Below, in pieces: positions 4,558-4,692 of a stretch of DNA of 64,000 bases (positions are counted from its first letter, which is position 1; each line of letters starts with the position of its first letter). Source of the DNA: Escherichia coli (GTDB taxonomy: Bacteria > Pseudomonadota > Gammaproteobacteria > Enterobacterales > Enterobacteriaceae). The stretch lies in assembly GCF_003790525.1 (NCBI RefSeq), contig NZ_CP033635.1; one strand, 5' to 3'. Position numbers and translations under genes: made by a program. The notes beneath the pieces were generated by a model that saw only the letters and a list, made by a program, of their open reading frames with translations, ran no database searches and was not told where the DNA came from.

Positions 4558-4692
4558 ATGGTTCAATGTGTTCGACATTTTGTCTTACCGCGTCTGAAAA
4601 AAGACGCTGGCCTGCCGTTTTTCTTCCCGTTGATCACCCATTCCCAGCCCCTCAATCGAGGGGCTTTTTTTTGCCCAGGCGTCAGGAGATAA
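4558..4692 (+). CDS. pyrL: pyrBI operon leader peptide PyrL (44 aa)
   Basis: Tail of ORF 4492..4692 from ATG 4558 reads MVQCVRHFVLPRLKKDAGLPFFFPLITHSQPLNRGAFFCPGVRR, ending 4 nt before pyrB. Confidence 0.9.
   Translation: MVQCVRHFVLPRLKKDAGLPFFFPLITHSQPLNRGAFFCPGVRR
4645..4672 (+). terminator. pyrBI attenuator (UTP-sensitive intrinsic terminator inside pyrL)
   Basis: Hairpin gcccctc-aatc-gaggggc followed by an 8-T run (4665-4672); an upstream T-rich pause region gccgtttttcttccc lies at 4611-4625. Confidence 0.9.

Follow-up and report, generated by a model that had tools for sequence, protein, structure and literature searches.

Is the short open reading frame that precedes pyrB in this stretch of Escherichia coli DNA, with the hairpin inside it, the UTP-sensitive attenuator of the pyrBI operon, or are these features better explained by another kind of leader, by the terminator of a neighbouring unit, or by an RNA or peptide that acts elsewhere? 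The whole stretch analysed, which we call the window, is 64 kb long, and an initial annotation made from its letters had described positions 4558–4692 as a pyrBI attenuator with leader peptide. We consider it practically certain that window 4527–4695 is the control region of the E. coli pyrBI operon, acting through UTP-sensitive attenuation and reiterative transcription. All elements of the attenuator lie where the initial annotation had placed them, with RefSeq annotation and protein-family matches in agreement, and the pyrL leader/attenuator at 4558–4692 is an ordinary textbook element, already known and annotated. The identity, anatomy, stability and conservation of the region are observed here, and polymerase pausing, ribosome coupling and the response to UTP are expected by analogy with the K-12 literature. 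Our sequence, fold and comparative analyses found no evidence that contradicts the pyrBI attenuator reading.

Identity and Annotation of the Locus

Window positions 4400–4760 are 100% identical in DNA sequence to E. coli SMS-3-5 (NC_010498.1), and the RefSeq pyrL coding sequence of that strain ("pyr operon leader peptide") maps exactly onto window 4558–4692 on the plus strand. Alignment with the annotated pyrL/pyrB leader was the check proposed when the element was first described, and the description passes it. The SMS-3-5 neighbours are bdcR, bdcA and yjgH upstream of pyrL, and pyrB, pyrI, ridA and mgtA downstream. In the window the regulated gene, pyrB, which encodes the aspartate carbamoyltransferase catalytic chain, occupies 4696–5631 (plus strand; TIGR00670, 419.7 bits), and the second gene of the operon, pyrI, which encodes the regulatory chain, occupies 5644–6105 (plus strand; TIGR00240, 243.5 bits); both assignments agree with RefSeq. 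With an identity threshold of 95%, the leader is present in nearly all complete E. coli genomes (5,424 of 5,426), and the features annotated there are in every case pyrL and pyrB.

Comparison of window 4480–4700 with K-12 MG1655 yields four base differences. Three are substitutions in or near the -35 hexamer and promoter spacer (4509, 4519 and 4521), and the fourth, at 4566, is synonymous, falling in pyrL codon 3 (CAA in the window, CAG in K-12); the PyrL protein accession, WP_001296693.1, is common to both loci. Between the transcription start and pyrB, this one synonymous base is all that separates the window from K-12 MG1655, so that K-12 experiments on UTP-sensitive attenuation apply directly, and no functional difference from K-12 is expected to arise through the four substitutions. 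The earlier claim of a classic UTP-sensitive attenuation architecture is supported by this identity to the K-12 leader, the UTP response itself being taken from the K-12 literature.

Promoter and Start Region

The -10 hexamer of the pyrBI promoter is TATAAT at 4527–4532 (plus strand), recognised by its sequence and its conservation across species, and TTGCAC at 4505–4510 (plus strand), read from the sequence, is the probable -35 hexamer. It matches the -35 consensus at three of six positions and stands 16 nt from the -10; its TTG is retained in a diverged upstream variant carried by other E. coli strains, described below. Because the -35 is weak, a consensus promoter scan called no sigma-70-like site at the pyrBI promoter; the TATAAT and the published start region, AATTTG, served to position it. 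A G+C-rich 7-nt spacer, GCCGGAC (4533–4539, plus strand), follows the -10; pyrBI has been reported to be ppGpp-sensitive, and a G+C-rich discriminator fits that report (PMC6524683).

The sequence AATTTG at 4540–4545 (plus strand) is identical to K-12 and to the published initially transcribed region of pyrBI, 5'-AATTTG, and we take it as the transcription start and the site of reiterative transcription. At high UTP, RNA polymerase has been found to add U repeatedly at this sequence and to release the resulting AAUUUUn transcripts, a process independent of the attenuator that lowers productive initiation about 7-fold (PMC7039003, PMC6524683). Promoters of this kind (the pyrBI/codBA/upp type) were recognised here by an AATTTG at the published pyrBI position, 7–8 nt after the -10, and the window has it there, with at least three T's directly after the start. 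The arrangement TATAAT-N7-AATTTG recurs exactly in 64 of the 115 species compared below, and some 15 others, Vibrio among them, have a close variant of it, for a total of about 80; conservation of AATTTG extends as far as Vibrionaceae. Judged from its sequence, AATTTG would impose by slippage a predicted second UTP-sensitive control of pyrBI. The initial annotation mentioned neither the promoter nor the AATTTG site, both of which adjoin pyrL just upstream.

The Leader Reading Frame

The pyrL frame (4558–4692, plus strand) consists of 44 codons and a TAA stop, and its translation is MVQCVRHFVLPRLKKDAGLPFFFPLITHSQPLNRGAFFCPGVRR. Its annotation as a 44-residue PyrL reading frame starting at the ATG at 4558 is confirmed by matches over 44 of 44 residues to both Pfam PF08052, PyrBI_leader (117.1 bits; cut-off 25), and NCBIfam NF007587 (120.1 bits; cut-off 61). 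A Shine-Dalgarno sequence, GGGAGG (4548–4553, plus strand), lies 4 nt before the start codon, and across 30 Enterobacteriaceae species its GGAGG is nearly invariant and the pyrL ATG is invariant. The frame is open further upstream (there is a TTG at 4492); these upstream in-frame starts precede the transcription start at 4540, which makes 4558 the first in-frame ATG on the transcript. The transcript thus presents in order a start (4540), a ribosome binding site (4548–4553) and an initiation codon (4558), and a reading frame homologous to PyrL stands directly upstream of pyrB on the same strand. The putative Shine-Dalgarno sequence of pyrB itself, AGGAG (4683–4687, plus strand), falls within the last pyrL codons, with the pyrB ATG (4696) 8 nt downstream.

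A second reading frame of 49 codons overlaps pyrL in another frame (4554–4703, plus strand). Its ATG abuts the Shine-Dalgarno sequence without spacing, it ends 8 nt inside pyrB, and outside E. coli only some Citrobacter retain it, so that translation of this frame is unlikely. In the fold of the full leader, the pyrL Shine-Dalgarno region CGGGAGGA (4547–4554) pairs with UCUUCCCG of the T-rich tract (4622–4629). This helix is kept in the 30-species consensus fold, where it shows one-sided G-C/G-U changes only and no compensatory pairs. It could sequester the Shine-Dalgarno sequence once the tract has been transcribed, or it could be a coincidence of folding.

The Candidate Pause Hairpin and the T-Rich Tract

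Within pyrL, between its start and the terminator, a pause-type hairpin is followed by a U-rich region (together 4588–4632). The hairpin, CCGCGUC-UGAAAAAA-GACGCUGG at 4588–4610 (plus strand), folds at -11.6 kcal/mol (z -4.5; none of 200 shuffles folds as well). The consensus fold of the 30 Enterobacteriaceae species retains it, and two of its pairs show compensatory changes (UA to CG in three species and GC to UA in two). A hairpin pause has been described in pyrL (PMC10135430), and we infer that the hairpin at 4588–4610, a candidate on folding and consensus-fold grounds, corresponds to it.

The T-rich tract, GCCGTTTTTCTTCCCGTTG (4614–4632, plus strand), encodes Pro-Phe-Phe-Phe-Pro-Leu and is, judging by its conservation and the literature, the probable UTP-sensitive slow zone. 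In composition it is modestly unusual, with 9 T's in 19 nt, a T content equalled by 4.4% of 19-nt stretches in the window. In conservation it stands out as the best-kept block of the leader apart from SD/ATG and terminator, with 91% mean column identity, and 86% at third codon positions, in the 30 species. The four conserved blocks in these species are the Shine-Dalgarno sequence with the ATG, the upstream hairpin, the T-rich tract and the terminator, and the spacer between tract and terminator has 64% column identity, compared to 86%–91% for the other blocks. The nucleotides of the tract are kept even where frame-shifting indels change the peptide that they encode, from FFFPL to FFLSV in Kluyvera, FFSRC in RIT691 and FSFRC in Pseudocitrobacter. 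Because third positions are conserved and the nucleotides survive in shifted frames, the pattern suggests that the transcript or template, and not the peptide, is what is constrained. In pyrL, RNA polymerase has been reported to pause on the U-requiring template when UTP is low (PMC10135430). The T-rich pause region that the initial annotation placed inside the PyrL reading frame is therefore this tract, conserved as nucleotides, with pausing itself taken from the literature.

The Terminator

The attenuator is an intrinsic terminator at 4646–4672 (plus strand), located by terminator scan and by folding, which lies within the leader reading frame and before pyrB. Its hairpin, AGCCCCTC-AATC-GAGGGGCT (4646–4665), has an 8-bp stem, six pairs of it G-C, and leads into a T run; folded alone it reaches -15.9 kcal/mol (z -4.84), a value attained by none of 200 shuffles. 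The T8 run (4665–4672) is one of only two runs of at least eight T's on the plus strand of the 64-kb window. The G+C-rich hairpin and T8 terminator described inside the 4558–4692 frame are thus where they were said to be, and the distance given, 24 nt before pyrB, is right within counting convention: 23 nt separate the last T (4672) from the pyrB ATG (4696), whose A is the 24th base. In a published reporter assay the pyrL hairpin terminated transcription about 18-fold in vivo (PMC5021804).

Elsewhere in the window, homopolymers of eight or more T (or A) occur only at 17424 (plus strand) and 337 (minus strand). Terminator-like matches number two, compared to 0.6 ± 0.7 expected. The second, a weak match at 4375–4389 (plus strand) between yjgH and pyrL, consists of a 5-bp stem, GCAGG…TCTGC, with the tail AATTATTG, and is within the range of shuffled sequence. 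A search of Rfam release 15 (E-value ≤10) returned no pyrBI-leader family, so that only protein-family libraries and genome annotation flag the pyrL leader. The best matches to other families, Chlorobi-1 (24.5 bits), GcvB (23 bits), Trp_leader (19.7 bits) and Phe_leader (16.4 bits), all fell below their gathering scores, were driven by the terminator and were rejected.

The leader frame has three adjacent Phe codons upstream of its terminator (TTT TTC TTC, 4618–4626), and this, together with the sub-threshold Trp_leader and Phe_leader matches, could be taken to indicate an attenuator of the trp/pheA type, in which a shortage of Phe-tRNA would stall the ribosome at these codons and so select one of the alternative hairpins. 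The two Rfam matches, however, fall well short of the gathering scores (41 and 55, respectively) and cover mainly the terminator, and no antiterminator competing with the 5' arm of the terminator appears in the minimum-free-energy, centroid or 30-species consensus folds. The locus accordingly shows neither the mutually exclusive antiterminator and terminator hairpins nor the run of regulatory codons for an end-product amino acid that characterise trp/phe-type attenuators: the regulated genes make pyrimidines, not phenylalanine, and the FFF motif is lost, while the nucleotides of the tract are kept, in the Kluyvera, RIT691 and Pseudocitrobacter leaders. A ribosome stalled at these codons, about 20 nt before the hairpin, would moreover leave the hairpin free to form, which makes no sensible logic for pyrB. 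We consider sensing of phenylalanine exceedingly improbable, and take the Phe-rich stretch as part of the UTP-sensitive pyrBI attenuator.

Conservation of the Attenuator across Species

To avoid circularity, loci for comparison were retrieved through the N-terminal coding sequence of pyrB rather than through the leader. Among 120 species-level genomes, the 115 with at least 200 nt upstream of pyrB were used, drawn from Enterobacterales, Vibrionaceae, Aeromonadaceae and several Neisseriales. With terminators located by an RNAfold-based finder, a hairpin of -11 kcal/mol or lower with a T-run directly following is present within 330 nt upstream of pyrB in every species (115/115; median -15.9 kcal/mol), compared to only 1.2% of shuffled upstream regions. 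We counted 29 different stems, every one fully paired, in a table that takes the hairpin predicted for each species as its anchor and is thus biased towards pairing. They include GCCCCTC/GAGGGGC, GCCCCTT/AAGGGGC, GCCTCCC/GGGGGGC, CCTCCG/CGGAGG, GCTCCTG/CAGGGGC and GCCCGAC/GTCGGGC, and at several positions C-G is swapped for T-A or G-C. An unanchored MAFFT/RNAalifold analysis of 30 species recovers only the four innermost terminator pairs, with no double changes there, because differences in loop length shift the register.

In Enterobacterales and Vibrionaceae the leader reading frame reaches up to or into the hairpin, and the position of its stop varies. In Vibrionaceae a TAA lies at the 5' foot of the stem. 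In Citrobacter, Kluyvera and Pantoea the stop is in the hairpin loop, most often after 33–34 codons, and it is also in the loop, at the end of longer leaders, in most other genera, e.g., Serratia, Yersinia, Photorhabdus and Xenorhabdus. The 44-codon frames of E. coli and E. albertii stop 2–3 nt before pyrB, and the 48-codon frames of Kosakonia and Pseudescherichia end 8 nt into pyrB. Shifts of the leader frame within or beyond the T-run are common across genera. Such a movable stop is expected, on comparison of these sequences, if a translating ribosome must reach and mask the 5' arm of the hairpin and the C-terminus of the peptide is unimportant.

Several local variants were seen along the way. 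The E. coli soil isolate SC434 has a one-base deletion in the AAAAG before the pyrB ATG (locus L003, 2671–2673), so that 2 nt instead of 3 nt separate the pyrL stop from the pyrB start; its distance from T-run to ATG, 22 nt, is the same as in E. albertii. Yersinia spp. (L005, L016, L049 and L114) carry a repeat, …GTGAGCGAAAGCAGCCAACGCACATGCAGCTTGAAGTATGACGGGT…, 80–200 nt upstream of pyrB, between attenuator and gene, which in several species of the genus moves the terminator to 127–202 nt from the pyrB ATG; we take it to resemble an ERIC-like repeat. Two loci have an Enterobacterales-type pyrB start under unexpected labels, namely L117 (labelled Martelella alba), where promoter, leader and attenuator too are complete and of enterobacterial type, and L113 (labelled Oceanobacillus sp., a 279-bp contig). 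Both labels look like misassignment or contamination.

Upstream Variation within E. coli

About 600 of the 5,424 E. coli genomes (~11%; e.g., SCU-108 and SC434) match the window only from about position 4523 onward, a break 4 nt upstream of the -10. In SCU-108 and SC434, the two genomes that we inspected, an OTCase-like argF, a YfcC-family protein gene and an "arginine repressor" gene adjoin pyrL and stand in place of bdcA and yjgH. The sequence upstream of the break (window ~4400–4523; 2418–2500 in L002 and L003) is diverged and still alignable, with TTGATC instead of TTGCAC as its -35.

This natural variation bears on the idea that the hairpin does no more than end transcription of the upstream unit (yjgH/bdcA), or is a bidirectional terminator of a generic kind, with a 44-codon frame present by chance. 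Intrinsic terminators are indeed common between genes, and short reading frames arise by chance; several overlap here, the 49-residue frame in the other register among them. But about 370 nt, including the pyrBI promoter, separate the hairpin from the end of yjgH at 4277, and pyrB keeps its hairpin even where the genes upstream are different ones, both in these roughly 600 E. coli genomes and in the 115 species, which belong to several orders. Nor does pyrL behave like a chance frame: different genera share its Shine-Dalgarno sequence, its ATG and its N-terminal peptide (MVQCVRH..LPRLK), and it has curated protein families of its own, whereas the 49-codon frame is kept only in close relatives. 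We give this explanation next to no credence and retain the assignment of the hairpin to pyrBI.

Natural variation around the attenuator, in the stop position and in the upstream variant, might change the tightness of pyrBI control, an idea that we rate as rather unlikely though not far-fetched. If it were true, the position of the leader stop could alter the time for which a ribosome masks the terminator and could set whether pyrL translation couples to pyrB initiation, and the upstream variant could give a different, or an arginine-linked, basal level of pyrBI.

A Model for the Control of pyrBI

The attenuation mechanism is established in the literature (PMC10135430, PMC4824070, PMC5021804, PMC7818426), and its steps can be laid over the coordinates of the window. 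Transcription would start at AATTTG (4540), where the first control, on initiation, would operate: at high UTP the polymerase would slip on the three T's and produce dead-end AAUUUUn transcripts. Polymerases that escape would go on to transcribe the pyrL leader and meet the second control, attenuation. With ample UTP, a polymerase would cross 4588–4632 without delay and keep ahead of the ribosome that began at 4558, the terminator hairpin (4646–4665) would form, and transcription would end in the U8, 23 nt before pyrB. When UTP is scarce, the polymerase would linger at the hairpin pause and U-rich zone, allowing the pyrL ribosome to catch up and cover the 5' arm of the hairpin, so that no hairpin would form and transcription would read through into pyrB and pyrI. 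The signal in this model would be how fast the polymerase moves compared with the ribosome, with no need for an antiterminator or for sensing of charged tRNA, and attenuation and reiterative transcription would together amount to repression without a repressor.

A consequence of this model is that high UTP should yield abundant terminated leader RNA (4540–4672, roughly 133 nt), and one may ask whether that RNA, or the PyrL peptide, acts in trans beside or instead of attenuation in cis. The RNA ends in a canonical hairpin and U-run, like Hfq-type small RNAs, there are sub-threshold matches to small-RNA models in Rfam (GcvB and Chlorobi-1, at the scores given above), and the N-terminal half of PyrL is conserved in Enterobacteriaceae. 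Those matches, however, are below threshold and terminator-driven, the C-terminal third of PyrL is conserved neither in sequence nor in frame nor in length, and in Vibrionaceae the sequence of the peptide can no longer be recognised. The cis mechanism, moreover, fully accounts for the anatomy of the leader, and a role in trans strikes us as a very long shot compared with cis attenuation of pyrBI.

For an element this well known, the value of the analysis is in part that of a positive control, in which the reading frame, the pause tract and the terminator were located to the base from raw sequence. The comparative results are modestly useful for modelling the pyrL leader, since Rfam is without a family for it. 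Useful by-products are the promoter/AATTTG/attenuator architecture out to Vibrionaceae, the nucleotide-level constraint on the tract and the movable stop.

Comparison with Known Systems

Among other pyrimidine systems, the PyrR-dependent pyr attenuation of Bacillus resembles pyrL in that termination upstream of pyr genes responds to pyrimidines. The Bacillus mechanism is protein-mediated, with PyrR binding the RNA, whereas pyrL needs no RNA-binding protein, and at this leader no Rfam match to a PyrR site was obtained, even at an E-value of ≤10. The trp/his/phe leaders (Trp_leader, RF00513; Phe_leader, RF01859) share with pyrL a short leader reading frame and an intrinsic terminator before the first structural gene, and in all of them the decision is made by ribosome position. 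Unlike those leaders, pyrL has no sensed run of regulatory codons and no antiterminator, and its signal is the NTP-limited speed of the polymerase.

In the attenuator of E. coli pyrE, the coupling ribosome translates the end of the upstream gene, rph, rather than a dedicated leader peptide. This rph-pyrE attenuator is, like pyrL, UTP-sensitive and works through pausing and coupled translation without a repressor protein (PMC7818426, PMC4491880).

The 33–34-codon leaders of Citrobacter, Kluyvera and others share with E. coli the promoter, AATTTG, Shine-Dalgarno sequence and ATG, N-terminal peptide, pause hairpin, T-rich tract and terminator. They differ in that their stop lies in the terminator loop, whereas the E. 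coli frame reads through the whole terminator and stops 3 nt before pyrB. The Salmonella pyrL leader is likewise reported as 33 codons. The K-12 pyrL/pyrBI attenuator studied by Turnbough and co-workers is the same locus as the one in the window, and the -10, AATTTG, Shine-Dalgarno sequence, pause hairpin, T-rich tract, terminator, T8 run and spacing to pyrB are identical in the two.
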